Below are positions 662 to 35,870 of a DNA stretch of 64,000 bases, one piece after another. The translations under genes and the position numbers were made by a program. The notes beneath the pieces were generated by a model. That model was given only the letters and a program-made list of their open reading frames with translations, ran no database searches and had not been told where the DNA came from. The DNA is from a virus. The stretch's first letter is position 1. The number at the start of each line of letters is the position of its first letter. The stretch lies in the UHGV virus genome UHGV-0348865; one strand, given 5' to 3'.

Positions 662-3600
662 TTATCTTCGTCCGCCAACAGCAAACTCTATCGTTAACCC
701 ATTGATAGCAGCATTACTGTTAACATCATTATCTATAACATTATAGAAAAGGTATGGATGGTTCAGTCTCACAGAGACATGCCTGTCAACACCGATCGTG
801 TATGTCTTAGATGTGTGTGGGTGTCCATATTCATTTGAGAATTGACTACCACCAGCTTCAAATATGTAAGTACCTGAACCAGTTGTCTGAGGTCTGAACC
901 TGTTGATATGTTTCTGATTCCATTCGTTAGTGATGTTATCAAAATCCATACCAGTTCTTTCTAACCTCATCTCCAGTGGTTTTTCTATAACCTTATCATT
1001 AAGCCTATCATAGAAGTAATCCAAAGCACCAACATCCACTTGATAGAATCCCCTCAAGAATGAACCTACTATCGTAACCCTCTGTCTAAAGTTTGTTGCA
1101 TCCTTTCTCCAAACAAGTTCTTTGATAGATGGGTCATCCCAAGTGATCTCTTGGAAGTCAGACCAGATTGGACCTCTCTCTAAAACAGGAGGGTCAACCA
1201 GACCGATACACTGAGCATAAGGGATAGTACGGAAAGACCAAGTATCAAACTCATAATTCCATACAGCAGCTTTAGTGCAAGCGAAGCTTTCTTTCGGCTC
1301 TCCCGGACCTACATAGAGAACCCAAACTTCTTTCTTATCCTGATGCAAGTGTACTCGAGTAGCTAGAGGGTTAACCAGACAAACCTCGTTAATCAGCATG
1401 TTCTTAACACGGTTAGATGCAATTGACTTCTTGGTTGCACCATTGTGTAAGATCACATCGTTCTGAGTAACTACGAAATGACTACCTTCTACTTCAACCA
1501 CACACTCAGGAGCAAGGATACCAGAGTCATTAAAGAGTTTCTTGAACATCAGAGGTTGGTATGTGTTATTAGTTGGAGAACCAATATACGTTTCAAACTC
1601 TGTATAAACGAACAAGTAGTCTTTAAGAGGCAGGATATCAATCAAGCTACCATTAGAATCGGCTAGGTCAATGTAACCAGCATACCCATTCTCTAGAGCC
1701 TGAGTCTGCCCTACGATGTTAGAAGCTAAGTCCGAAGACACAACTCGATCATAGGCAAAGTCATCCCACAGTGTAGGAGCCTTGTTCTCATTGGCAAAGT
1801 TAGACCAACGAAGACGAAGCGGATAGTTAGTGGTAACACCAGAAGCATTAGCCTCTCTCATATTCAGAGCAAAAAGACGGTTGTTAAAAGATCTCACTCT
1901 CTCACATTTCCAGTTAAACTTCTTGACTGAAGGGTTTCCATCACTATCAACAACTGTTTGCTCACCCCACCCCGGAAGGTCTACAAAGTATTCTGATTCG
2001 AATTCTTTTACCTGAGGAGTTTCATAGTGAGTTGTAGCAACTGCACAGTTAGAGATAACAGCGTGATACCAAGGGTAGTCATCAAAAGCATCGTAATCCT
2101 TCTGAGTCATCTGACTGACAGTGCATGTTACGTTAATCTCTCCTTTACGAAGAGCAACCAGTTTGATAGATTTACCAGTGACTGAAGTTGTAGAAACATA
2201 ACCAGTTTTATCAACAGACCACTGATAAGAGTACTCACCTTCTGGAGAAGCTGTGGCTGTAATGACAATCTCTTCACCAACATCAAGGGAGGCGCTGACA
2301 ATATCTAAGGTTACAGACGACAAAGGGGTTGCCAGTAAAGAAGCTCTTGCAAAACCTTCAATGTCATTCACGTTAGAGTAGTCGTAGAAGTTGTTACCTT
2401 CATACATCCCTGACGTATCAATACCGGATGTAGGCTCAGCAAAATAAACCGTCTCTTCACTTTCAGGAGGAGTTACTACTTCTTCCTCTTGAGTTTCTAC
2501 TGACTCTGACACAGGAGCGGCAAATGCCATAGCACTTGTTCTCATTGTCCTTCCAGCTAAATCCACACGTACAGTACAGACAGCAACTCTGTTACCTTCT
2601 TCAGTGGTAGCTGTAATCTCAGTAAAACCAGCAAGCAGAGCGTTGATCGTCCCTTGTGTGCTAGTCCCTGATACTGTTGCAATATTTGGGTTAGAAGAGG
2701 TCCAAGTAATGTTTTGATTAGGGGCGTTAGCAGGAGAAAGGGTGGCAGTTAAAATATACTGAGAACCTCTACTCACAGTAACATCTGACTGGCTTAAAGA
2801 GATACTATCAATCTGAGGGATAGAAACAATCTCACAAGAAGCAGTCTTAGTCCCGTTATCAGCAGTGATTGTTACATTACCTTCTCCATTCGCTGTAATG
2901 ACAGCAGTTAAAGAGTTGGCGTTAGGGGTTACAGATACAATAGAAGCATTATTGCTGGACCAAGTTACAGGGGTTTTGCCAGTAACAGCCGTGAGGGTAG
3001 TAGTCCCTCCTTTACGAATTGTAACAGTATCTTGACTCAAGAAGATGCCTGAATCACCATCGATGATATTAACAGCAATCTGAGCCACTACGGATTCATT
3101 GGCAGTAGAGATAGTTACTACAAGATTACCCTCTTTCTCAAAAGATGTTAGAGTAGCAAGTTTAGAGTCACTAGGGTCTACCGTAATACTTCCATAGGAT
3201 GAGTTACTAACCTCCCAAATAAGATCGGTATTGTTAGCATCAGCAGGGAGAAGAGAAACCTCTAGATTCTTGGTCTGATTGAAGTTCATTGAGATAGTTG
3301 ATTCTTTAGGAACGATCTGAGAAACAACTGGATAAATCTTAATTGAGGCAGAAGCCTTCTTAGTGACTGTAGCAACCTTACGGCTAATATCAGTCAAGCT
3401 TTCATCTGTCAGTTTATATAACTTCTTATCAGTACCTACAACAAGAAAGCTATTACCTGCGCTATAATAATCGAAAGGCATAGAAACGAAAGACAGAGGG
3501 GTTAAATCCTTATCTTCATCTACATAAGAAAGAGGGGCATTGCCCCCCGTCTTAAATACTCTCTGCTCAACAAATCGAGCATTTATAGCATTAGTGAAAG

Positions 3601-21225: not shown

Positions 21226-21253
21226 TTGACAGTCTTTTCCTTTATTATATAGT
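21226..21253 (+). promoter_or_regulatory. sigma70-type promoter (TTGACA-16 nt-TATAGT) upstream of first early ORF
   Basis: consensus -35 at 21226-21231 and near-consensus -10 at 21248-21253. Confidence 0.55.
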
Positions 21254-25993: not shown

Positions 25994-26437
25994 GTGGCTA
26001 AATCTAAAATCAGCATGAAGGGCGGGCGTTGTTTTGCTATCTCTGAACTGGAGAAAGAGAAGCCAAAGGCAACTAATCACGTTAGCAAGCGTAGTCTAAA
26101 ACGTCGTGCTGCAAAAGCTGAGGCTGAATCCCATGTTCCTTCCAGTGTGGCAAAACGTATAGGCCATCGTGTCCATCGGGCTGATGCGTTGTTGTTAGCT
26201 GATCATAAACGCTCTTTGTTAAAGAGCGGGGGAGCTAAAACAGAAGAGGAGAAGAAGTTAGAAATCTTCTGTAATGGTCGCACCCGTGGTAAACAGAAGT
26301 TTAAAGGTAGTACGAAAGACCCGCAGGCTTTCCCTAAGACAAGTCAGTGTGCGCCTGATGTATTCTACGCAGATAGTAAACACAAGTGGGGTGTTGAGAA
26401 ATACATTGACCCCATTAAAGAGGCGAGGGTAAAATGA
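25994..26437 (+). CDS. basic hypothetical protein
   Basis: 147-aa Lys/Arg-rich ORF. Confidence 0.4.
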   Translation: MAKSKISMKGGRCFAISELEKEKPKATNHVSKRSLKRRAAKAEAESHVPSSVAKRIGHRVHRADALLLADHKRSLLKSGGAKTEEEKKLEIFCNGRTRGKQKFKGSTKDPQAFPKTSQCAPDVFYADSKHKWGVEKYIDPIKEARVK

Positions 26438-28350: not shown

Positions 28351-28591
28351 TCTTGAGTTTAAGAATCCAGAGCTGAAAGTAGGTGATTTGAAACTTGGAG
28401 ATGTATTCCAAGTGAAGGCAACATGTATTGACCATTACATGATTGTCCAGCTATACACACCACATGTGTCAGAGACTGATCTTCGGAATGGTTGTGTAGT
28501 ACTTAGTTTAAATACCAATCAAGTAATGAAGCTAGACTCAAACTTACCTGTTTCGGTTATCCATAATGTAGTAATTACCAATCGGAAGTGA
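28340..28591 (+). CDS. small paralogue family member 2
   Basis: KLGDVFQV...HYMIVQL...GCVVLSLNTNQ pattern. Confidence 0.45.
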   Translation: MKIDLEFKNPELKVGDLKLGDVFQVKATCIDHYMIVQLYTPHVSETDLRNGCVVLSLNTNQVMKLDSNLPVSVIHNVVITNRK

Positions 28592-28806
28592 TTATGAACA
28601 TTGAAAAGAAGGTTGCTGATGAGGCTGTTCAGTTGCGATCTCTTGAAACACATGATGTATTTGTGTGGAGAGGTAGCCTGTTTCAGAAATCTGCCTATGC
28701 TGTAGAGGGCGGGGTTCGTTGTTTTAATATCCTTAACAACGAGATGCAAATCCTTCCTAACTTCGCTCATGTTAATAAGTTAGTTCATCTAACCATCAAT
28801 CAATAA
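28588..28806 (+). CDS. small paralogue family member 3
   Basis: THDVFVWRGSLF...VRCFNILNNE pattern; ATGA overlap with previous. Confidence 0.45.
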   Translation: MIMNIEKKVADEAVQLRSLETHDVFVWRGSLFQKSAYAVEGGVRCFNILNNEMQILPNFAHVNKLVHLTINQ

Positions 28807-28816
28807 AGGTAAGTAG

Positions 28817-29035
28817 ATGGAAATTAAAGTAGTTGATTATCCTAAATATGCAAATGCAGAAGACGTTAAAGGTGGTGATGTTTTCTCTTACGACAGACGT
28901 TTCTGGCTGATGTTAGAAGATAAAACTCCCGATGGTTTGTGTAAGGCCGCTAACCTGAACAGTGGTTCTGTTGAAGTCTTCGGTCTATCAACCACTGTTA
29001 TGCCACGTCCTGATCTGTGTTTATCCCAAAAGTAA
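28817..29035 (+). CDS. small paralogue family member 4
   Basis: KGGDVFSYDRRFWLML...CKAANLNSGS pattern. Confidence 0.45.
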   Translation: MEIKVVDYPKYANAEDVKGGDVFSYDRRFWLMLEDKTPDGLCKAANLNSGSVEVFGLSTTVMPRPDLCLSQK

Positions 29036-29040
29036 CACCG

Positions 29041-29150
29041 ACTTATAGCCCTTGTGTTTATCAGAGGGCTATGTGAGGGTGTTCCTCATTAACTTATTAA
29101 TTCAGGCATATGCCACACCGCTAGGGAGAGCTTGCTCGAACATCCGGTGT
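29041..29150 (+). ncRNA. conserved non-coding element, copy 1 (hairpin ACTTATAGCC...GGGCTATGTGAG plus GCTAGGGAGAG...CTCGAACATCCG block)
   Basis: same arrangement recurs at 35487-35605; no ORF. Confidence 0.4.
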
Positions 29151-29523
29151 TAGACTAAAACCTGTTAATTTTCGAAAGACTTTCCGATATGTAGGGGTAC
29201 GTATTGGTTTGGGATTCAGGAGACTTCCTAGGGGTAGGGAGTCTTCACCAGTTGGGATAAGAGATAGCTCTAGAACCTGAACTCTTAGGCAGAGAAGGTC
29301 GGCAATGAGTACGCGGTCAGGGTTAGTCTACTGACTAGGGCTATCCCTTATATCAACTGGCAATAATGCCTCCACTAACAAAGAGAGATAGGTATGAAAG
29401 TATCAACCAAACGTATGAACCGCCCTGAACGTATGGATGCAGTAGCTAATGGTGCTCTGAAACTGGAAGGCTTCTGGATTCATGCAATGTCAGCCATTCG
29501 TAACAAGCAAGGCAATTGGACCT

Positions 29524-29733
29524 ATGCCGGTTAAAACAGTTCATGTAATAGGTATGCGAGAGATCATTCGCATTGCCTTGATGGAACACACTGATCGCAA
29601 CGCTCAACTAACGCAAATCTCTAAGTGTCTTAACTGCTCAAGAGATGTGGCTAAGGAGTTGATGTTCGCATTCCTTTATAATGCAGAAGACGAGATGCTA
29701 CAGAATCATCTGATTCGTGGTGTGAGTCAATAA
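29524..29733 (+). CDS. hypothetical small protein
   Basis: ATG overlapping stop of a 46-codon upstream ORF (29394-29534). Confidence 0.35.
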   Translation: MPVKTVHVIGMREIIRIALMEHTDRNAQLTQISKCLNCSRDVAKELMFAFLYNAEDEMLQNHLIRGVSQ

Positions 29734-29736
29734 AGA

Positions 29737-29768
29737 AAGGCTGCCTTCGGGCGGCCTTTGTTGTTTTA
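29737..29768 (+). terminator. rho-independent terminator
   Basis: AGGCTGCC-TTCG-GGCGGCCT hairpin followed by TTGTTGTTTT. Confidence 0.65.
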
Positions 29769-29811
29769 ATTAAGGGACAACTCTTACTTAAACTAACAAG
29801 AGGAAGCTAAA

Positions 29812-29988
29812 ATGTCTAAGCAAACAATCAAACATACTCAAGCTGGTTACTCTTATGTCAACTCCCCTTGCTGCGGTGCTCGTATTAGTCTGGTTAAGGA
29901 AGAGGTTCGTATCGTTCAGCGTGGCGCTACTGTTGTTCGTGCATGCTGTGTATGTGGTAATGATATTTTCATTAAAGGTAAAGTATGA
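29812..29988 (+). CDS. small zinc-ribbon protein
   Basis: 58-codon ORF not in track; CCGA...CCVCGN Cys pairs; AGGAAG ribosome-binding site. Confidence 0.4.
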   Translation: MSKQTIKHTQAGYSYVNSPCCGARISLVKEEVRIVQRGATVVRACCVCGNDIFIKGKV

Positions 29989-30209
29989 TTATCGTTCGCT
30001 CTGAGCCTAAAGATAACACTTTTGGCAGCCTCCGTAATGGTGATGTGTTCTCTCTAGAGATAGACGGGGATACAAAACCTCCTTTATATATGAAGGTTAT
30101 GCACAGACATGCTATCTGTATAAATAACCCTGAAACAAGATTTACATTTGATAGAAGTTGTCCTGTCAGATTTTATCAAGCTACCCTAAACGTCAGGAGA
30201 GTAGGATGA
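29985..30209 (+). CDS. small paralogue family member 5
   Basis: RNGDVFSLEI...LYMKV...AICINNPETR pattern. Confidence 0.45.
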   Translation: MIIVRSEPKDNTFGSLRNGDVFSLEIDGDTKPPLYMKVMHRHAICINNPETRFTFDRSCPVRFYQATLNVRRVG

Positions 30210-30457
30210 AAAACTTCCAAGCTGCACCAATCACTAAAGTGATCGAAGTTGACGGTGTGATGATGACTGTTCCTCTGAATACCCGTCACATTGCGATTGA
30301 TAAGATGGGATATGTGTGGGCTTGGAAGATTAAGCCCTCTTACAATGAACTCTTTGATGAGTTTGTTTGCACTGGCACATATAGCCCTACGTTCTTGGGT
30401 ATCTTTGAAGATTTCAAAGGCAAGCCTAAGATTATCACACTCCCTGCATGTGCTTGA
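30206..30457 (+). CDS. hypothetical small protein
   Basis: internal ATG with GGAGAGTAGG ribosome-binding site; overlaps previous stop. Confidence 0.4.
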   Translation: MKNFQAAPITKVIEVDGVMMTVPLNTRHIAIDKMGYVWAWKIKPSYNELFDEFVCTGTYSPTFLGIFEDFKGKPKIITLPACA

Positions 30458-30464
30458 GGTTGTT

Positions 30465-30719
30465 ATGAAAGTTTCTAAACGCTGGGCAATATTTGGAGAG
30501 ATTCAAATAGGTGGTGAGATTAGGAGTGGAAGCTCCCAACTTGTAGCAGTGTTTGACTCTTATCCAACAGAAGAGTTCCTTATGAAGCTTTCTATTCCTG
30601 AACCTCGAAAGAAGGATGTAATTAAGCGCATTCTGGAAAGGGGTGTAGGTTTCTGGAAAGAGGATTGGTACTCTAAAGGCTATATACTCAGAGAGATTGA
30701 TTATGTTCAAATGGTTTAA
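30465..30719 (+). CDS. hypothetical small protein
   Basis: ATG with GAGG ribosome-binding site. Confidence 0.4.
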   Translation: MKVSKRWAIFGEIQIGGEIRSGSSQLVAVFDSYPTEEFLMKLSIPEPRKKDVIKRILERGVGFWKEDWYSKGYILREIDYVQMV

Positions 30720-30900
30720 ACGTCTCGTGCATCTGCACGATTGGGTAATCCTTGAAAAATATTCTCTGAGGATTACCGATGATTGTGGCGGGACAAAGCA
30801 CAAAGGTCTCCGCTATATCATGCAGTGTAAAGTGTGTGGTAGTATTACCTATCGTGACATTATTTAAATAAATCTGCGCTCTTAGCTCAACGGAGGGGTT

Positions 30901-31329
30901 TTGAAGATAGAGTTAGAATACCCCTTCGTCAATGACTGGCGATTGGGTTACTTAAGAACAAGTAGAGATGGTAGGAAGCGTGTTGATTTGTACAACTCCG
31001 ACACGGAAAGGACAACCATTTCTTACGCAAGATATTTAATGTCTTGTTATGTGGGTAGATACTTAACTTCAGAGGAAGAGGTTGATCATATTGATCAGGA
31101 CTCAACCAATGATGAGATTTCCAACTTACAGATTCTAAGTATCAGTGAACATTTAGAGAAGACATTAAAACATAGGGTTAAGGGTGCAGTATCAATCTTG
31201 ACTTGTGCCAACTGTGGTGTACTTTTCGAACGGAGAGAAAATAAAATACACAAAAAGAATCAGAATTATTTTTGTAGCAGATCTTGCAACGGTAAGTATT
31301 ACTGGAGCAATGGTTTCAATAACAAATGA
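30901..31329 (+). CDS. HNH homing endonuclease
   Basis: TTG start after GGAGGGG; motif EVDHIDQD...NDEISNLQILS..EH and C-terminal Cys cluster. Confidence 0.6.
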   Translation: MKIELEYPFVNDWRLGYLRTSRDGRKRVDLYNSDTERTTISYARYLMSCYVGRYLTSEEEVDHIDQDSTNDEISNLQILSISEHLEKTLKHRVKGAVSILTCANCGVLFERRENKIHKKNQNYFCSRSCNGKYYWSNGFNNK

Positions 31330-31340
31330 GAGTTCTTAAT

Positions 31341-31419
31341 GGGGGTGTACCTCACCCGTCTTCTAAACGGGCGTTAATCGAGTAATTGGAGTATGCAGGT
31401 TCGAGTCCTGTCTCCCCCT
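31341..31419 (+). ncRNA. tRNA-like element with canonical T-arm; possible tRNA (anticodon-like loop CTTCTAA would give UCU/Arg) but D-arm not resolved by eye
   Basis: T-arm GCAGG-TTCGAGT-CCTGT; 7-bp acceptor-like pairing GGGGGTG/CTCCCCC; flanked by 10-nt inverted repeat AGAGTTCTTA/TAAGAACTCT. Confidence 0.4.
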
Positions 31420-31436
31420 CTAAGAACTCTTGGAGA

Positions 31437-31766
31437 ATGTTTATGTTTAAAAAAGTATTATTACTATGTACTCTCTCACTAAGCCCTCTGGTTATGTCAG
31501 CTGATTTGAATTTCCTAGATGGGTCTTCCTCTTATTTAAAAAGAGAGAGAGGTTTGGTTAACAGTAGAACTCCTGATGAGGGATATTTTGTTGGATATAC
31601 AACCTCCACTACACGAAATATTGCTAATTGTAGCTCATCGGGAACCTTAAACAAAGTTGTGTGGGAGGTTGTTGCTTTATACATTGAACAGCATCCTGAG
31701 AGACGTCATCTAAGCAATGATGATCTTATCATAGAGGCTGTAAACAACGCTTGGTGTAATAAATAA
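31437..31766 (+). CDS. secreted protein (signal peptide)
   Basis: N-terminal MFMFKKVLLLCTLSLSPLVMSA signal. Confidence 0.45.
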   Translation: MFMFKKVLLLCTLSLSPLVMSADLNFLDGSSSYLKRERGLVNSRTPDEGYFVGYTTSTTRNIANCSSSGTLNKVVWEVVALYIEQHPERRHLSNDDLIIEAVNNAWCNK

Positions 31767-31782
31767 ACCATAGGAGGTGCTT

Positions 31783-32064
31783 ATGAGTTGGGGTGGTGTA
31801 ATATCCTTAATCTGTATCTTCCTTGTCTGTGTGGCCCTTACAGGCTGCGTACAGAGCCGTCCTGATGGATGGTGTGCATTATCTGTTGAAGGTGTGTGCG
31901 TATCTCGTTGGCATAAGGGTGAGAAGGTTCCTTCTGGTGAAATTGATATGCGTTACAGTGGTATCTCATGCCTGAATGGTGCAGCAGTAGATGAGGAGAC
32001 TAAAACCTTGTCAGATGCGCAGTGGTGTGGTGGCTCTGTAACAACAACCGGTAAGGAGTGGTAA
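31783..32064 (+). CDS. lipoprotein, Cys-rich
   Basis: signal peptide ending in lipobox-like LTGC; several Cys. Confidence 0.45.
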   Translation: MSWGGVISLICIFLVCVALTGCVQSRPDGWCALSVEGVCVSRWHKGEKVPSGEIDMRYSGISCLNGAAVDEETKTLSDAQWCGGSVTTTGKEW

Positions 32065-32065
32065 C

Positions 32066-32314
32066 ATGACAGCTCATTATTGGAATACAAAGAAGCTCCT
32101 TGAAGAGATGGCTGGAGTTAGTAAGTTCCAGTTAAATTCCATGCTTCGAATGGATGCTCGCTCTTTACGCTTCCAAGTAAAGATTGGTAACTTCAGCGAT
32201 GGCCTTTACTACACACTGAAGGAAAGGATTAAGAAGACTCACTTCATCATATATGGACTCAAACCGAGAACATATGTTAACTACATGTATTGGGATACAT
32301 GCTACGATAATTGA
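32066..32314 (+). CDS. hypothetical small protein
   Basis: 82-aa ORF. Confidence 0.35.
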   Translation: MTAHYWNTKKLLEEMAGVSKFQLNSMLRMDARSLRFQVKIGNFSDGLYYTLKERIKKTHFIIYGLKPRTYVNYMYWDTCYDN

Positions 32315-32321
32315 GGTTATT

Positions 32322-32543
32322 ATGAAACTAGACTCTAAGCAGTCACTTAAAACCGTTGAGCTGTCCACGCTGCCAAACGGAAGTATTTTTGGTCATGATA
32401 AACACTTCTGGATTAAAACAGACATCATAAACGATGGATATATCACCTGTGTCAATCTTTGGAACGGCTCAGTGGATGGTTATCGCCCTAGCACAAAGGT
32501 GGTCCCTCAGCCTGATGCTAAGGCTGTAGGTTTAGTTTACTAA
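32322..32543 (+). CDS. small paralogue family member 6
   Basis: PNGSIFGHDKHFWIK...YITCVNLWNGS pattern; start at internal ATG with GAGG ribosome-binding site. Confidence 0.45.
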   Translation: MKLDSKQSLKTVELSTLPNGSIFGHDKHFWIKTDIINDGYITCVNLWNGSVDGYRPSTKVVPQPDAKAVGLVY

Positions 32544-32552
32544 GGAGTTCAT

Positions 32553-32726
32553 ATGAGCTGTTATGGTGGCGGTGAAGTATACGATGACGATGATATGGAA
32601 TCTAACGATACATGCCCTGATTGTGGGTGCGAAACATTTGATGGAGTGTCAGTATATCCTACCTGTAGTTATTCACCAGTGATCTGTAAAACATGTGGAG
32701 ATCAACCTTGTGATGAGTCTTGTTAG
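32553..32726 (+). CDS. small Cys-rich acidic protein
   Basis: 57-aa ORF not in track; multiple CxxC pairs; AAGGAG ribosome-binding site. Confidence 0.4.
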   Translation: MSCYGGGEVYDDDDMESNDTCPDCGCETFDGVSVYPTCSYSPVICKTCGDQPCDESC

Positions 32727-32955
32727 TGTGTTAATAGCCTATCTGATAGGATCAGTAGTATCAGGTGTTCTGATTAAGATTATAGATGTTAAAGGAAATC
32801 AGTGTTTCCGAGATTGGGATGGTGAGCCAGACCTCGGAAAGATAGCAGCTATGGTTTTCTTGTGGCCTATTATTGCTGTACTATTTATAGCACTCGTAGC
32901 ATGGGCTGCTCTTTGGGATTTCATCCTTCCTAACAAAAAGTATGAGGACTCATGA
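32713..32955 (+). CDS. small membrane protein
   Basis: two predicted transmembrane segments. Confidence 0.4.
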   Translation: MSLVSVLIAYLIGSVVSGVLIKIIDVKGNQCFRDWDGEPDLGKIAAMVFLWPIIAVLFIALVAWAALWDFILPNKKYEDS

Positions 32956-33564
32956 CTAAAGAATTTTTAGAGTGGTTTGGTGATACCTTCAAAGAGTATC
33001 TATTCTCTCCAGAAGACTTTGAAGAACTGAAAACCTACACTTGGTTGGCTTGGAGAGATAGCCGACGAGAGATGAATAAGTAATATCGTGAAGGATTCTT
33101 ACGAGAGTCCTTTGAGATAGGACTTCAGATCTCCTATCAAACTAACATTCATGTAACTAGCCCATAAGGGCGTTACCCTTTAATAACCCAGCCCACTAAG
33201 GGGGCGGGAGTTTAGTGCTGGATTAGCATAACGCTTATTCCTACAAAGGCAACCGATTGTTAGATCTTACATGCAATATTAATTAATAGGATATGGGAGG
33301 GTTCGTCCCCTCCCCCTATTTATAAATTATCAGGAGAGTGCATTAGCTGATTAGCTGTAGAAGGGAGGCCGATACTACAGTGTGGCCCAGAGCTAGTGTA
33401 CTCTCCTGATGAGGCACCTCCTCATCGTGGTAAGCTGTGGAATGATCTTTACAGTAGTTACTTGAAGTAGCCTGTACGGCCCTCAGCAAAGAGTCCGGAC
33501 GATATCTGAGTGACTTTAAAAACAGATGGAGCCAGGTGGAATCCCTGGCAATTAATTACAGGTA

Positions 33565-33700
33565 TAGCTTATGTGACCCAGTAATGCAGAGTCTACGGTA
33601 AAGCAGTCGCCCGTGGTCGAATGACCGTATGCCCATTGGATGCATTCCTTTGGTGATGGCTAGGGAGTCCGAGCGTAGGTTCGAATCCTACACCTGTAAT
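33565..33700 (+). ncRNA. structured RNA candidate with tRNA-type T-arm closed by a 9-bp long-range stem
   Basis: T-arm GTAGG-TTCGAAT-CCTAC at 33675-33691; ATTACAGGT (33565-33573) pairs with ACCTGTAAT (33692-33700); region 33060-33730 has no ORF. Confidence 0.35.
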
Positions 33701-33730
33701 CAAATTGAATAATATCTAATTGGAGGATGT

Positions 33731-34042
33731 ATGAAAGCACGAAGAACTATATGGACTCCGATGCAGATTGAAAATCTTCGGAGACTAATCAAAGAGTACT
33801 CGGTTCAAGAAGTTGCTCAGATCATGAATGTAACGGAGAATGCCGTTAACACAGCTTGCACTAAGTTTGGTATATCAAGAGCTTCAATCCGAGTTAAGTG
33901 GTCTAAAGAAGAAGATCAGTTCCTTATCCGTAATGCTGGGTTCATGCCTATCCAGAGAATGGCTGACATGCTCGGTAGAAGTTATGCTGCTGTGCAGAAC
34001 AGGGCATGTATGCACCTTAACATTAGCCTAAAACTTAAATAG
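33731..34042 (+). CDS. DNA-binding regulator with two tandem HTH-like repeats
   Basis: two repeats of W...E..L.......S..E.A..M.....AV resembling sigma region 4 / Myb-like HTH. Confidence 0.4.
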   Translation: MKARRTIWTPMQIENLRRLIKEYSVQEVAQIMNVTENAVNTACTKFGISRASIRVKWSKEEDQFLIRNAGFMPIQRMADMLGRSYAAVQNRACMHLNISLKLK

Positions 34043-34050
34043 GAATCAAT

Positions 34051-34296
34051 ATGAAGATCATCCCAAAGATTAAAGATAACACTGTTTCACTGGCTACAAT
34101 TATTCCCGGAAACCCTTTCGTAGTTCAGAGAGGAACAGCATCTCCTCAGTATTACATCCGTGTCAGTAACGTGTCCAACAAAATCTCTGTAGAAGAGGGT
34201 TGGATTACGACAGTAAATCTACTGACTGGTGTACTGGGTGTTATGAAAAGTGATGCCCCAGTTGAAGTGATTCGTATGTCTGTGGTTCAGGAGTAA
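34051..34296 (+). CDS. small paralogue family member 7
   Basis: PGNPFVVQRG...YYIRV...ITTVNLLTG pattern. Confidence 0.45.
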   Translation: MKIIPKIKDNTVSLATIIPGNPFVVQRGTASPQYYIRVSNVSNKISVEEGWITTVNLLTGVLGVMKSDAPVEVIRMSVVQE

Positions 34297-34303
34297 TAAG
34301 TAG

Positions 34304-34552
34304 ATGAGCACCATTAATATTAAAGTTAAGCATAAGAAAGAGAACATCCTCAGGGTTATGGATTTATTCAGAGCCGACGTCTTTACTTTAAAACAGTGTC
34401 CAACTTCCCATACCTACATGCTAACGAACCCGAGCAATGGTCTTAAGCCCGCTGGGGCGGTTAATCTGGGAACTGGAGAACTTCGGACAATTGCTGGTGA
34501 TATGGTTGTTGATGAGAAGTTTAGTAAAGTCGAAATGATCTTGACTCCTTAG
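34304..34552 (+). CDS. small paralogue family member 8
   Basis: RADVFTLKQ...YMLTN...GAVNLGTG pattern. Confidence 0.45.
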   Translation: MSTINIKVKHKKENILRVMDLFRADVFTLKQCPTSHTYMLTNPSNGLKPAGAVNLGTGELRTIAGDMVVDEKFSKVEMILTP

Positions 34553-34694
34553 GAAAACAAATGAGACTTAAAGCATATTCTTATGACGATATGATTAACC
34601 AAAAAGGCTTCGGTCAACGACAGCCTGACGGTTCAATTATCTGGTTCGTAAATGGACAGAAAAAGGTAGCTAAATAAGCCCTCTTCTCTCCTCC

Positions 34695-34711
34695 TTTTAG
34701 TACTATGACGC
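34695..34711 (+). promoter_or_regulatory. conserved 17-mer TTTTAGTACTATGACGC (copy 2)
   Basis: identical to 26611-26627; followed by hairpin GCGTAGGG...CCCTCTACGC and T-run. Confidence 0.45.
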
Positions 34712-34783
34712 CTCTCTGTGGGCGGCCCAATTTGCGTAGGGAATTCCCTCTACGCAGCCATGACTTTTTAAGGAATTTCCCCT

Positions 34784-35017
34784 ATGTCTAAAGTAAGCGC
34801 AATCGATGCAATCCGTCAACCGTTCCAGTTCCAATCTAAATCAACCCAAACCTTCAGTGAGCCTAAGCAAATTCGCTTGGGTGGCACAGAGAAAACTGTG
34901 TTTGATCTGGCTAAAAACAAGAGTGTTACCGTGGTTGATGGTGGCACTCTGGTTAACGTTTCCCATCGTATCCGCACTGGCAAAACTGCCAAAGATCGTG
35001 CTAAGAAAGGTGAGTAA
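34784..35017 (+). CDS. hypothetical small protein
   Basis: 77-aa ORF. Confidence 0.35.
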   Translation: MSKVSAIDAIRQPFQFQSKSTQTFSEPKQIRLGGTEKTVFDLAKNKSVTVVDGGTLVNVSHRIRTGKTAKDRAKKGE

Positions 35018-35259
35018 TGAAAATAGGGAAACCAGCTAAGGATGTTCTAGCGAAGATTAGTGATATCTCTACTGGGGAAGTTTTCTCAGCAGAGCACTTT
35101 TCAAGTTACTACATGAAAATCCCTGACACTAAAGTAGAGGGTTGCATCATCCCTGCCAACGCAGTTAACCTGAACACAGGACATTTGTCTGCATTCAAAC
35201 CTGATTCACAGGTTACTGAAATCAAAGATGCCTACCTTGCCTTTGGTGGAGATAAATAG
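35017..35259 (+). CDS. small paralogue family member 9
   Basis: STGEVFSAEHFSSYYMKI...ANAVNLNTG pattern. Confidence 0.45.
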   Translation: MKIGKPAKDVLAKISDISTGEVFSAEHFSSYYMKIPDTKVEGCIIPANAVNLNTGHLSAFKPDSQVTEIKDAYLAFGGDK

Positions 35260-35260
35260 C

Positions 35261-35476
35261 ATGATAACACTCGTGTCTGTCGTTTACAGATTACACTACC
35301 GTCTGGATAAAGGAAAATCCTATAAATGCAAGAGTAAGACAGGGAATCGATGCTCTGTAGAGAACAACTCTGGTCAATGGGTGGATGTTCCTTGTTGCTG
35401 GTTCAGGAAAGATTTGACTAGCAAAGAGATTGACGAAATTCTTAGTGATGATTTTGTAAAATCAGGCGATTTTTAG
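35261..35476 (+). CDS. hypothetical small Cys-containing protein
   Basis: ATG overlapping upstream stop. Confidence 0.35.
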   Translation: MITLVSVVYRLHYRLDKGKSYKCKSKTGNRCSVENNSGQWVDVPCCWFRKDLTSKEIDEILSDDFVKSGDF

Positions 35477-35486
35477 ATAGAGTGAC

Positions 35487-35605
35487 ACTTATAGCCTTCC
35501 CTCCGGAGGGCTATGTGAGTTATTCTGACTCAACTAACCTAATCTTAATATATTTCCCGTATGGGGCCGATGCTAGGGAGAGGAATAATCCTCGAACATC
35601 CGTCG
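35487..35605 (+). ncRNA. conserved non-coding element, copy 2
   Basis: hairpin ACTTATAGCC...GGGCTATGTGAG and block GCTAGGGAGAG...CTCGAACATCCG shared with 29041-29150. Confidence 0.4.
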
Positions 35606-35870
35606 GATAGATATTTTAAGAGCAGGTTATCCACAGATATTGGGTAATATCTTTTTTTGAATTTAAAGCTTGGCTCTTTTCGGAGAGTCCTTTTTTAAAT
35701 TCAATGAGAGGAAATATGTCTAAATTAGATTTAAAACTGCTAGCAGCAGCGGTAGTGATTTGTGCACTAGCACTGGTAACGCAGAGAACATCTGGATTTA
35801 TTCAGTGTTTCTTTTCTGGGCAATCCACTTATCAGTGGGTTATTGACGAGTGTAAACAACAGGAGTAAGT

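Follow-up and report, generated by a model that had tools for sequence, protein, structure and literature searches.

Two elements on the + strand of the 64 kb window (the whole stretch of DNA that was analysed, 64,000 nucleotides from a Kuravirus, a phiEco32-like coliphage) are members of one RNA family. Element A lies at ~29030-29150 and element B at ~35478-35633. They are paralogues, two copies of a single structured RNA domain for which no counterpart was found in Rfam or in the searchable literature. The domain is a new conserved and intricately folded RNA within the predicted early transcripts of phiEco32-like and 7-11-like phages.

The original prediction had placed two elements at 29041-29150 and 35487-35605, and exact motifs and a covariance model agree on these places. 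The covariance model that was built from homologues matches exactly two sites in the 64 kb window, namely the B copy at 35478-35615 (141 bits, E 2e-32) and the A copy at 29032-29159 (107.5 bits, E 3e-24), and the third-ranked match scores only 12 bits. Exact matches of ACTTATAGCC in the window are found at 29041 and 35487 only. The composite GCTAGGGAGAG-N(2-14)-CTCGAACATCC has just two exact matches in the window (29120-29145 and 35572-35601) and none in 100 dinucleotide-preserving shuffles. The boundaries had to be redrawn. The family begins 8-10 nt further upstream than was thought, at a conserved AGURAC / AACACC flank that forms its 5' edge, and B continues ~28 nt further, to 35633, with helix P5. 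The two shared blocks are separated by 47 nt in A and by 57 nt in B instead of about 40 nt, and the stretch between them is structured, with two more covarying hairpins (H2 and H3).

The family is conserved in related genomes, across Kuravirus, Suseptimavirus, and the relatives of Salmonella phage 7-11, and one further member was found on an unrelated phage contig (L047). That contig is a third lineage with the element, which lies there in an early, host-takeover gene cluster, and it encodes a Srd-like sigma-70 decoy. Phage 7-11 carries a single copy, with one match to the H4-loop pattern genome-wide and no model match in 74-89.9 kb.

The fold is read on the + strand, which is the sense strand of the early genes. 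Hairpin H1 is extended by a pairing of the 5' flank (P1ext), and hairpin H2 overlaps P1ext and competes with it. The small hairpin H3 follows, with a RUAU loop that is kept in all members. Hairpin H4 holds an invariant 7x7 internal loop, CUAGGG(A/C) / (G/A)AACAUC, where the positions adjoining the inner stem co-vary (A..G, C..A or A..A). In B-type copies, the long-range helix P5 encloses H3 and H4 and gives a three-way junction.

That both elements are structured RNA, as had been suggested, is strongly supported by the comparison of homologous sequences. In the structure-guided alignment, 99.2% of cells are paired with 10 doubly changed pairs, against 32-47% in controls where pairing was recomputed with helix partners slid. 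In the plain MAFFT alignment with the RNAalifold structure, 98.5% of cells are paired with nine doubly changed pairs, against 35-48% in the slid controls. Covariation analysis with homologues is thus positive by both routes (98-99% against 32-48%). Compensatory substitutions are found in four to six helices and back every helix of the fold, which is retained in distant phages. Conserved G-U pairs within helices fix the sense strand as the functional one, and the + strand also folds better than the opposite strand. The idea of conserved stems with different loops holds for H1, but the most conserved part of the domain is the unpaired internal loop of H4.

The P1ext 5' strand of A (AACACC, 29034-29039) overlaps the stop codon of the upstream ORF (29033-29035) and pairs with GGUGUU at 29078-29083, in a register identical to that of the B copies. 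This helix is predicted in the MFE fold and also in the RNAalifold structure of nine A-type sequences aligned by plain MAFFT. It covaries, with a compensatory AACAUC/GAUGUU in ECBP2 and a U-G intermediate in SU7. H1 of A (29044-29073) pairs UAUAGCCCU with AGGGCUAUG in 100% of cells around a variable loop, and its entire stem is swapped for UGUUAAGCG/CGCUUAACG in the distant L047. H2 of A (29074-29088) pairs UGAGG with CCUCA. One pair of this hairpin (column 47/55) is G-C in the A copies, whereas the B copies have U-A in Kuravirus and C-G in Suseptimavirus. The 5' strand and loop of H2 contain the P1ext 3' strand, so the two pairings are mutually exclusive. H3 of A (29105-29114) is GGC-AUAU-GCC, and its stem is GGC/GCC, GCC/GGC or CCC/GGG depending on the member. 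H4 of A (29115-29150) consists of the outer stem ACACCG/CGGUGU, the loop CUAGGGA / GAACAUC, and the inner stem-loop GAG-CUUG-CUC. Double changes affect three outer-stem pairs and two inner-stem pairs of H4.

A-type copies have a 3' extension (29184-29345 in A) with three hairpins. The first two (29184-29207 and 29219-29246) have the loops UAGGGGUA and CCUAGGGGUAGGG, and the third is a long hairpin (29263-29345) just 5' of the start of a 46-aa ORF (29394) that corresponds to phrog_13305. An insert (29271-29337) makes up the apical part of this long hairpin; it shows ~82% identity to the N-gene leader of P22-like phages and is lacking in SU7 and Bas93. The extension has AUAUGUAGGKGUA and CAGGGGU in common with L047. 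We infer that the extension belongs to the same functional unit as A. UAGGGAG and UAGGGGUA recur in the loops of three non-coding gaps. No terminator lies within ~500 nt of the A-type copies or of the L047 copy; a strong hairpin lies downstream of A at 29736-29759. Three terminators upstream of A (25190, 26673, and 26758) are not covered by any family copy.

The P1ext 5' strand of B (AGUGAC, 35481-35486; AGUAAC in most relatives) begins 5 nt past the upstream stop codon (35474-35476), and its partner is GUUAUU (35519-35524). The stop codon falls within the 5' strand in SU7 and Bas93. H1 (UAUAGCCUUCC / GGAGGGCUAUG, 35490-35515) and H3 (CCC-GUAU-GGG, 35556-35565) covary, and covariation is also seen in H2 (UGAGU / ACUCA, 35516-35532), the competitor of P1ext. 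H4 of B (35567-35606) consists of the outer stem CCGAUG/CGUCGG, the loop CUAGGGA / GAACAUC, and the inner stem GAGGA/UCCUC. P5 joins UAACCU..UCUUAA..AUAUUU (35535-35555) to AGAUAU..UUAAGA..AGGUUA (35609-35629). RNAalifold predicted it from 11 B-type sequences, 7-11 relatives included, in a plain MAFFT alignment, and three of its pairs show double changes. Its 3' strand runs into the conserved CAGGUUAUCCACAG, which includes a perfect DnaA-box 9-mer (35627-35635).

The elements as first drawn contain no terminator-type T-run, as had been noted, but B is then followed by a weak hairpin and a conserved terminator. The weak hairpin (T1, 35636-35658) is A/U-rich with a predicted -3.7 kcal/mol and ends in U7. 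T1 is specific to Kuravirus, and its U-run is absent in Suseptimavirus and 7-11. The intrinsic terminator (T2, 35672-35696) is GGCUCU-loop-AGAGUCC with a bulged U, then U6, and its extended stem (35660-35702) forms a long hairpin just 5' of the next start codon. T2 and its flanks are conserved from Kuravirus to 7-11, and the SU7 and 7-11 records carry a terminator annotation. Every B-type copy that was checked has the same intrinsic terminator 25-40 nt downstream. This order of element and terminator is kept in the window, Bas90, SU7, Bas86, Bas93, 7-11, and two metagenomic 7-11-like contigs. No conserved alternative pairing between the domain and T2 was found; a candidate in Kuravirus (AAGAGC/GCUCUU) is missing in the 7-11 relatives.

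The stop codon of the upstream ORF is 0-6 nt from the P1ext 5' strand, or inside it, in the window, Bas90, SU7, Bas93, and 7-11. The gene upstream of the element varies among phages and conservation starts abruptly at the 5' flank, and the earlier view that the element travels with the small genes is not supported. Nor do both copies follow members of that gene family, since B in the window is preceded by a non-member. No conserved promoter was found upstream of the element. Given this and the differing upstream genes, the element is most simply part of an operon transcript, and A and B would most simply be transcribed within host-RNA-polymerase early operons. In scans for consensus matches only, several intrinsic terminators lie on the + strand of the early region, and ~12 kb of + strand genes past T1 and T2 have no good sigma-70 promoter (no + strand match of at least 10/12 between 35.7 kb and 47.9 kb).

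Our best guess, a tentative one, is that the domain may be a cis-acting control of termination or antitermination by host RNA polymerase. The domain would act in cis on the elongating polymerase and set the passage of the following terminator or terminators. The targets of B would be T1 and T2 (35636-35696), and for A the candidates are the strong hairpin at 29736-29759 and sites further on. Docking would take place on the invariant H4 loop together with the H3 loop, and the partner would be RNA polymerase itself (put/EAR-like) or else a host or phage factor (nut/N-like). A terminating ribosome would necessarily disturb the switch between P1ext and H2, which would thereby tie folding to translation of the upstream gene. 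Each transcription unit would have one copy, mirroring putL/putR and nutL/nutR. A published study of phage 7-11 stated that an undefined read-through (antitermination) device is probably needed. A B-type copy lies just before a conserved terminator, which makes the domain a candidate for this device, and the domain may be that device. Antitermination is favoured by the presence of two family copies, the covarying sense-strand fold, the likely place of the element inside operon transcripts, the precedent of HK022 put, the conserved order of element and terminator, the promoterless ~12 kb downstream, the several terminators of the early region, and the position of the L047 copy, also in an early host-takeover cluster. 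It is opposed by the A-type and L047 copies that have no nearby terminator, the three uncovered terminators upstream of A, the single copy of 7-11, the missing conserved pairing between domain and T2, the lack of put or nut similarity by the model, and the lack of any matching Rfam family.

Known systems resemble the domain in part. HK022 has two similar RNAs, putL and putR, one per early operon (PMC9378689), which are RNA-only processive antiterminators, and the two copies of our domain would likewise be distributed one per host-RNA-polymerase early operon. Nascent sense-strand RNA acts in put and would act here, and both exhibit stacked stem-loops with conserved irregularities. However, put is ~70 nt with two stems, whereas the A/B domain spans 125-155 nt and comprises a three-way junction and five or six helices. 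The putL site is near its promoter, whereas A and B are ~1-2 kb or more downstream, directly after ORFs, and the 7-11 lineage has one copy. HK022 putR is just upstream of a terminator. The covariance model gave nothing at E <= 0.01 on 24-35 kb of HK022, which we take to include both put sites (best 12.4 bits, E 0.06), and no match to P22-like nutL regions. An identity with put or nut was rejected on this lack of similarity. The domain resembles the lambda/P22 nut arrangement in that one copy precedes a small gene with a lambdoid N-leader block (29271-29337) and the other precedes a terminator. It differs in that it lacks a boxB-type 15-nt hairpin and a convincing boxA, and SU7 and Bas93 do not have the inserted N-leader block. 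CUCAUUAAC in the linker was rejected as boxA, being only a partial match to rrn boxA and partly base-paired. EAR (eps-associated RNA, Bacillales), which Irnov and Winkler are said to have described in 2010, is a structured RNA of similar size (~120 nt) between genes of a long operon and reportedly promotes read-through of distal terminators. Its host range and fold are different, and the A/B domain has no Rfam match and only a putative antitermination role.

It is possible, though rather doubtful, that the element is a discrete stable non-coding RNA acting in trans, ~215 nt in the B type, like a 3'-UTR-derived sRNA. Cleavage at the conserved 5' edge would release B from the early transcript, with T2 as its 3' end, the A type would be processed at both ends, and a host mRNA or protein would be bound by the H4 loop or by single-stranded CAGGUUAUCCACAG. 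Conservation is unbroken from AGURAC to the far flank of T2, and this is so even for Kuravirus and 7-11, whose non-coding DNA otherwise has little in common. A stable RNA ending at T2 would fit this conservation at least as well as termination control. T2 has a U6 3' end, and U-runs of this kind are typical of Hfq-dependent sRNAs. The motifs UAGGGAG and UAGGGGUA also recur as repeated protein-binding sites would. Against a trans-acting RNA stand the lack of a conserved promoter, the A-type and L047 copies without terminator, and the folded core, not a single-stranded stretch, that is common to all members.

The earlier suggestion of a module for mRNA processing or stability is unlikely for the domain. 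RNase III would cut P1ext and H1, giving the upstream message a protective 3' hairpin, and the downstream RNA would refold into H2. P1ext and H1 together form 6 bp, a 3x3 internal loop, and 10 bp, directly after the stop codon in every copy checked. This interrupted helix resembles the T7 RNase III signals, which are also paralogous irregular hairpins directly after stop codons in early polycistronic host-polymerase RNA. Long hairpins lie just 5' of the next start codon at both loci (29263-29345 and 35660-35702), and the former holds the insert with ~82% identity to the lambdoid N-leader region, which carries an RNase III site in lambda. However, ~17 bp is short for E. coli RNase III, and the T7 signals are single hairpins of ~50-60 nt without an H3/H4/P5 domain or an invariant 14-nt internal loop. 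Cleavage leaves the H4 loop, H3, and P5 unexplained, and a simple exonuclease barrier requires no conserved unpaired nucleotides. RNase III action suits P1ext with H1, or the downstream long hairpins, better than the whole element.

A ligand-sensing riboswitch, with the three-way junction and invariant loop as aptamer and T2 as expression platform, is improbable. The stems co-vary around invariant junction and loop nucleotides, and B is followed by a terminator, which recalls riboswitches and RAT-type antiterminators with their aptamer-like junction upstream of an intrinsic terminator. In 7-11, genes for NAD salvage and PRPP synthetase lie upstream of the element. However, the genes downstream of A, B, and the 7-11 element differ and thus share no metabolic theme or common function. 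No conserved competition or overlap between the domain and a terminator was found, half of the family copies (A and L047 among them) have no adjacent terminator as expression platform, and no Rfam riboswitch matched.

A DNA-level element, such as part of a replication origin or a DnaA-controlled site with hairpins extruded from single-stranded DNA, is very improbable. The perfect DnaA box (TTATCCACA, 35627-35635) is conserved to 7-11 with AT-rich stretches nearby. It is a single box without a cluster, relaxed DnaA matches in the window number five against 7.8 expected, and A has no box. The overlap of the box with P5 accounts for its conservation in terms of RNA, and the conserved G-U(T) pairs indicate a strand-specific fold of the transcribed sense strand. 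Chance resemblance, with 0 motif matches in shuffles, and short protein-coding genes can practically be dismissed: each element does overlap a mechanical ORF (29052-29153, 33 aa, TTG; 35482-35610, 42 aa, GTG), contrary to the original prediction of no frame, and hypothetical proteins are annotated there in the GenBank records of Bas90 and 101114UKE3, but the starts are only TTG or GTG, H1 has indels of 2, 4, and 6 nt among close relatives, and the substitutions are compensatory, paired across stems.

Both non-coding elements of the original prediction are present in the window, and their sequences match its description. Element A (about 29030-29150) and element B (about 35478-35633) are paralogous copies on the plus strand, and both lie within intergenic gaps of that strand (29036-29393 and 35477-35703/35715, respectively). 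The composite GCTAGGGAGAG-N(2-14)-CTCGAACATCC occurs exactly twice in the window, and none of 100 shuffles contains a match. Exact matches of ACTTATAGCC in the window are found only at the starts of the two elements. The covariance model of the family (R1) was built from 17 homologous sequences and recovers only two copies in the window, with 141 and 107.5 bits (the next match has 12 bits). In the pattern scan of IMG/VR, each Kuravirus or Suseptimavirus genome had two matches, whereas Salmonella phage 7-11 had one. BLAST of both loci against GenBank phages returned 96-100% identity to the Escherichia phages YW01, Bas90, SU10, KBNP1711, and phiEco32, and 126 GenBank records matched the A region. 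Judged by its sequence, the window belongs with Kuravirus and related phiEco32-like phages. Its early and middle genes lie on the plus strand from about 21 kb to 64 kb, and strong sigma-70 promoter matches are located at 21226, 23012, and 23315. The RNA feature represented by A and B is real and well supported.

Homologues were taken from Bas90, phiEco32, NJ01, KBNP1711, ECBP2, SU7, Bas86, 101114UKE3, Bas93, and several metagenomic contigs. The structure-guided alignment (A4), which was fitted by hand to the structure, yields four hairpins (H1 to H4). H1 is formed by UAUAGCC...GGCUAUG and H2 by UGAGN...N'CUCA. H3 consists of a 3-bp stem with a RUAU loop. H4 consists of a 6-bp outer stem, an internal loop of CUAGGG(A/C) and (G/A)AACAUC, and an inner stem of 3-5 bp with a variable loop. 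Standard pairs occupy 99.2% of the 510 cells in A4, and changes on both sides are found in 10 of the 30 pairs. When the 3' partners were slid by 1-3 columns as a control, pairing decreased to 32-47%. Because A4 had been hand-fitted to the structure, the test was repeated on a plain MAFFT alignment (A7; 11 B-type sequences, distant 7-11 relatives among them), with the structure obtained by RNAalifold. A7 exhibits 42 pairs (98.5% paired, nine pairs doubly changed), and its slid controls exhibit 35-48%. On A7, RNAalifold again predicted H1 and H3 as well as the outer and inner stems of H4, and it proposed two further helices, P1ext and P5. The original prediction had suggested a structured RNA, and the check for covariation with homologues found compensatory changes on both alignments.

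P1ext lengthens H1 by pairing the conserved 5' flank with the six nucleotides directly 3' of H1, and its register is identical in every member. The paired strands are AACACC/GGUGUU in the A type, AGUAAC/GUUAUU in the B type, and UACC/GGUA in the metagenomic contig L047. Within the A type, ECBP2 exhibits a compensatory AACAUC/GAUGUU and SU7 exhibits a U-G intermediate. P1ext was also chosen by RNAalifold on nine A-type sequences. P1ext and H2 overlap in nucleotides and therefore cannot form together, and each of them exhibits compensatory change. The simplest reading is that P1ext and H2 are two alternative conformations. P5 is a long-range helix of the B-type copies in which the linker between H2 and H3 (UAACCU..UCUUAA) pairs with UUAAGA..AGGUUA 3' of H4. 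It closes H3 and H4 into a three-way junction, and three P5 pairs exhibit double changes. A candidate P5 in the A-type copies (AUUAAC/GUUAAU, 29088-29093 and 29164-29169) is lost in phiEco32 and is not predicted by RNAalifold, and it was rejected. A closing helix of the whole element and pairings of the H4 loop with the H1 flank and of the H3 loop with the tail were also sought by hand and rejected (at most 4 bp, unconserved).

Several conserved pairs are G-U, which would be A-C mismatches on the minus strand, and the minus strand folds worse than the plus strand; therefore, the functional strand is the sense strand. The two H4 loop positions beside the inner stem co-vary and take the combinations A..G, C..A, or A..A, in the A lineage as well as in the B lineage. 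By isostericity rules, such combinations would be expected if the two positions form a conserved non-canonical pair.

Only Kuravirus and Suseptimavirus, 7-11-like contigs, and L047 pass R1. Suseptimavirus (SU7, Bas86, and 101114UKE3) and Bas93-like phages have two family copies each. Salmonella phage 7-11 (Grimontviridae), scanned with R1 past 67.5 kb, has a family member at 90 bits, and the 7-11-like metagenome contigs have members at 86-95 bits. The remaining pattern matches, whether from IMG/VR, from metagenomes, or from genomes, fall in coding DNA by chance; these collection scans demanded the exact H4 loop, so that members with a different loop would escape. L047 (JBOFGJ010000684.1), a contig assigned to a Flavobacterium MAG, has a clear copy of the family at 3014-3145 (63 bits). 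This copy retains the H3 loop and the H4 internal loop, but its H1 stem has a wholly different sequence. The genes around it form a cluster of small plus-strand ORFs that includes an Srd-like sigma-70 decoy. L047 has no detectable protein or DNA similarity to the window, and BLAST against GenBank phages gave no match to it. The contig probably comes from a virulent phage that has gone unrecognised, and it is possibly mis-binned. A cognate binding partner was sought as a shared protein, and none is common to L047 and the window. What connects the two phage families and the one unrelated phage is an RNA and not a protein. The region is present in more than 120 sequenced phages, several of which were isolated on multidrug-resistant or pathogenic E. 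coli.

Rfam 15 at gathering thresholds gave only a weak tRNA match in the whole window (31341-31419). At E <= 10, it gave no match in 28900-29500 and just three sub-threshold matches in 35400-35750, on the terminator hairpin. ARAGORN found no tRNA in the window, and the Rfam tRNA model has no match at A or B. The stretch 33558-33700, which lies in another non-coding gap of the window (33083-33731), holds a tRNA-like acceptor stem and a true T arm, and it has ATAGC..TATGTGA and GCTAGGGAG in common with A and B. A tRNA-like origin of the elements through this stretch was rejected: R1 does not recognise the stretch, and A and B have no T arm. The prophage small RNA svsR was tested against kuraviruses and is unrelated. 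The searchable literature, primary phiEco32 papers excepted, contains no description of the A and B RNA. We rate A and B as a new family of phage structured RNA, cis-acting or processed, with no Rfam membership.

The original prediction also held that neither element has a coding frame. Mechanical ORFs do overlap both elements (29052-29153 and 35482-35610), and short hypothetical proteins are annotated at such loci in public records (for example Bas90_0108, several in 101114UKE3, and 9253-9354 of contig L001). However, indels and paired substitutions contradict coding. The B copies of the window and Bas90 differ by a 2-nt indel in H1 and other B copies by 4 and 6 nt, the substitutions among relatives are paired across stems, and the reading frame is not preserved among relatives. 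On this comparison, the short ORFs annotated in these RNA loci are probably spurious.

The upstream genes differ among phages, and nucleotide conservation begins abruptly at the AGURAC/AACACC flank. The stop codon of the upstream ORF lies inside the 5' strand of P1ext or at most 6 nt before it in the window, Bas90, SU7, Bas93, and 7-11; therefore, a terminating ribosome must cover this strand. The suggestion that the elements travel with a family of small genes is not supported: A directly follows one member, but an unrelated 82-aa ORF lies between B and the nearest member. The paralogous small proteins (about 72-80 aa; phrog_6570 / phrog_12612) are encoded at 28588-28806, 28817-29035, and 35017-35259 and are scattered through the early region.

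A is followed by 245 nt more of conserved non-coding RNA, which consists of two hairpins and a long hairpin before a 46-aa ORF. The two hairpins show UAGGGGUA and UAGGGAG in their loops, and AUAUGUAGGKGUA and CAGGGGU of this extension are common to L047. The ORF (29394-29534, MKVSTKRMNRPER...) encodes a mildly basic protein that matches only PHROG families of unknown function. The closest terminator-like site 3' of A is a strong hairpin at 29736-29759 (-19.3 kcal/mol). Each of the three large non-coding gaps has UAGGGAG or UAGGGGUA in loops of its predicted hairpins, and the sites are 29122, 29192, 29229, 29235, 33661, and 35574. Four of the seven TAGGGAG sites of the window and both TAGGGGTA sites fall within about 1.2 kb of non-coding sequence, and the recurring sequence may be a repeated protein-binding motif. 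The apical insert of the long hairpin (29263-29345) is a block of about 67 nt (29271-29337). In P22-like Salmonella phages, the leader that separates nutL from gene 24 (N-like) has about 82% identity to this block. The match is found in BTP1, L, SE1, and ST160, with a near-identical 30-nt core TCGGCAATGAGTACGCGGTCAGGGTTAGTC. Because the block is present in phiEco32 and missing in SU7 and Bas93, it looks, from these sequences, like a small mobile RNA module common to lambdoid and virulent phages.

The sequence 3' of B is conserved from Kuravirus to 7-11. It consists of CAGGUUAUCCACAG, which is part of P5, and then GGCUCU-loop-AGAGUCC-U6 with its flanks, the intrinsic terminator T2 (35672-35696). 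The annotations of SU7 and 7-11 mark T2 as a terminator; its core is predicted to fold at -7.3 kcal/mol, and core plus flanks at -10.9 kcal/mol. Kuraviruses have an extra weak hairpin with a U-run (T1, 35636-35658; predicted -3.7 kcal/mol). The first gene past T2 encodes the endolysin in 7-11; in the window, it is a 54-aa ORF that includes a hydrophobic stretch. Past T2, there is no plus-strand sigma-70 match of at least 10/12 before 47.9 kb and no strong terminator before about 55.3 kb. AAGAGC in the 3' strand of P5 is complementary to GCUCUU of T2 in Kuravirus and this is lost in 7-11 and the contigs L029 and L045; an antiterminator pairing with T2 was rejected as unconserved. A perfect DnaA-box 9-mer (TTATCCACA, 35627-35635) lies between B and the terminator, overlaps the 3' strand of P5, and is kept in Suseptimavirus and the 7-11 relatives; no cluster of boxes is nearby. 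Of 5426 complete E. coli genomes, 399 have an 86% match to the 42 nt at 35614-35655 in the intergenic region that precedes nrdD (E = 0.005). The DnaA-box-like core probably accounts for this match, which may be due to chance.

The put RNA makes E. coli RNA polymerase resistant to terminators without protein factors, through the beta' zinc-binding domain. HK022 putL and putR are two similar RNAs, one per early operon (PMC9378689). HK022 put has about 70 nt and two stem-loops, whereas the A and B family has H1/P1ext, H2, H3, H4, and P5. R1 on HK022 24-35 kb, which we take to be the stretch holding both put sites, found nothing at E <= 0.01 (best 12.4 bits, E 0.06), and it found no match at P22-like nutL. 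The sequences of A and B have no single-stranded boxA (CGCUCUUUA-like) followed by a boxB hairpin with a GNRA-like pentaloop, unlike the boxA and boxB of P22-like nutL as annotated in phage L. A lambdoid nut site also goes with a cognate arginine-rich antiterminator of the N type encoded downstream; the ORF downstream of A is the mildly basic 46-aa one of the unknown-function PHROG families. By architecture and the R1 search, the family is neither put RNA nor nut site.

The study of 7-11 transcription reported that early transcription must run into downstream genes and that the antitermination strategy 'remains to be defined' (PMC8948821), and the SU10 paper carries a similar remark (PMC4281155). 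From the fold, the context, and these two papers, we tentatively favour an element that acts in cis on the elongating host polymerase and controls termination or antitermination. The invariant unpaired nucleotides of the sense-strand fold would form a binding surface. The elements lie within early operons of the host polymerase, without a promoter of their own, and in phiEco32-like phages each putative transcription unit has one copy. The B type, which is the more widespread of the two, is rigidly tied to an intrinsic terminator, and expression of the next gene block requires passage through it. The alternative pairing at the 5' end (P1ext or H2) would be perturbed by a ribosome. The logic would be analogous to HK022 putL/putR, nutL/nutR, or the intra-operon EAR element; if this reading is right, A and B would work like a put, EAR, or nut element without membership in any of them. 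We hold this reading as possible rather than probable because A and L047 have no nearby terminator, no copy covers the terminators upstream of A, a conserved pairing of the domain with T2 is absent, and the sequence conservation of T2 equally fits a discrete stable RNA ending there.

One rival is a processed RNA that acts in trans. An RNase III site or stability module is a second rival. P1ext (6 bp), a 3x3 loop, and H1 (10 bp) would give an interrupted helix of about 17 bp. A signal of the T7 R-site type has about two turns of interrupted helix with the internal loop at the scissile site. Hairpins longer than P1ext with H1 are located further downstream, at 29263-29345 and 35660-35702. A ligand riboswitch could be considered for B, which is followed by T2, but the mutually exclusive pairing of closing helix and terminator expected of a terminator riboswitch was not found in the family, and A and L047 have no adjacent terminator. 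A DNA-level site is a further rival. Promoters and a replication origin were rejected: neither A nor B contains a match to tAATGTAtA, the consensus of gp36, the motif of 7-11 late promoters (GTAAtg-16-aCTA) misfits the AGUAAC flank by eye, no conserved -35/-10 of an own sigma-70 promoter lies upstream (the match inside B at 35525-35554 is absent from 7-11), and a replication origin is contradicted by a single DnaA box without enrichment and a GC skew that shifts only at the divergent-transcription point at about 21 kb.

Cis-acting control of the elongating polymerase could be taken one step further, and here we are more doubtful. The family might be a new class of nascent-RNA regulator, a put-like antiterminator (RNA-only or factor-assisted) that is gated by the ribosome through P1ext and H2 and sets when phiEco32-like and 7-11-like phages move on from immediate-early to delayed-early/middle transcription. 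The gating ribosome would be the one finishing the upstream ORF. If true, this regulator would answer how 7-11 antiterminates and would be a second natural example of an RNA that reprograms the elongation complex. The phiEco32-like phages (Kuravirus and relatives) serve as models in the study of sigma factors and RNA-polymerase inhibitors that phages encode. Terminators occur within their long early operons, and the literature states that an antitermination strategy must exist. A complex, covariation-backed RNA at a conserved terminator is a concrete and mutable candidate for that strategy, and the interest lies chiefly in making this question of phiEco32 and 7-11 transcription testable. Whatever the mechanism (stable RNA, processing signal, or protein sponge), the RNA family is new, and its unusual feature is the invariant 7x7 internal loop with isosteric non-canonical covariation.

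Other observations were made in the window. The sequence at 31341-31419 is a tRNA-like gene of aberrant form, which scores 33 bits with the Rfam tRNA model and is not found by ARAGORN. Its anticodon is UCU, its D arm is almost absent, and its extra arm has 20 nt. Related phages have a normal tRNA-Arg there, and an HNH-endonuclease ORF (30901-31329) lies directly upstream. The gap 33083-33731 is a 650-nt non-coding gap of double the Bas90 length. Its extra part, which also holds the tRNA-like stretch 33558-33700, includes two stretches related to other phages: 33492-33567 has about 90% identity to the tRNA region of the N4-like group, and 33429-33482 has about 83% identity to RaK2/121Q-like jumbo phages. 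The half in common with Bas90 has several strong hairpins, including a terminator-like GGGAGGG..CCCTCCC at 33295-33314. The palindrome CGCTCTTTAACAAAGAGCG (26210-26228) inside the ORF 25994-26437 is near the rrn/lambdoid boxA consensus (GCTCTTTAACAA) when read on the minus strand.
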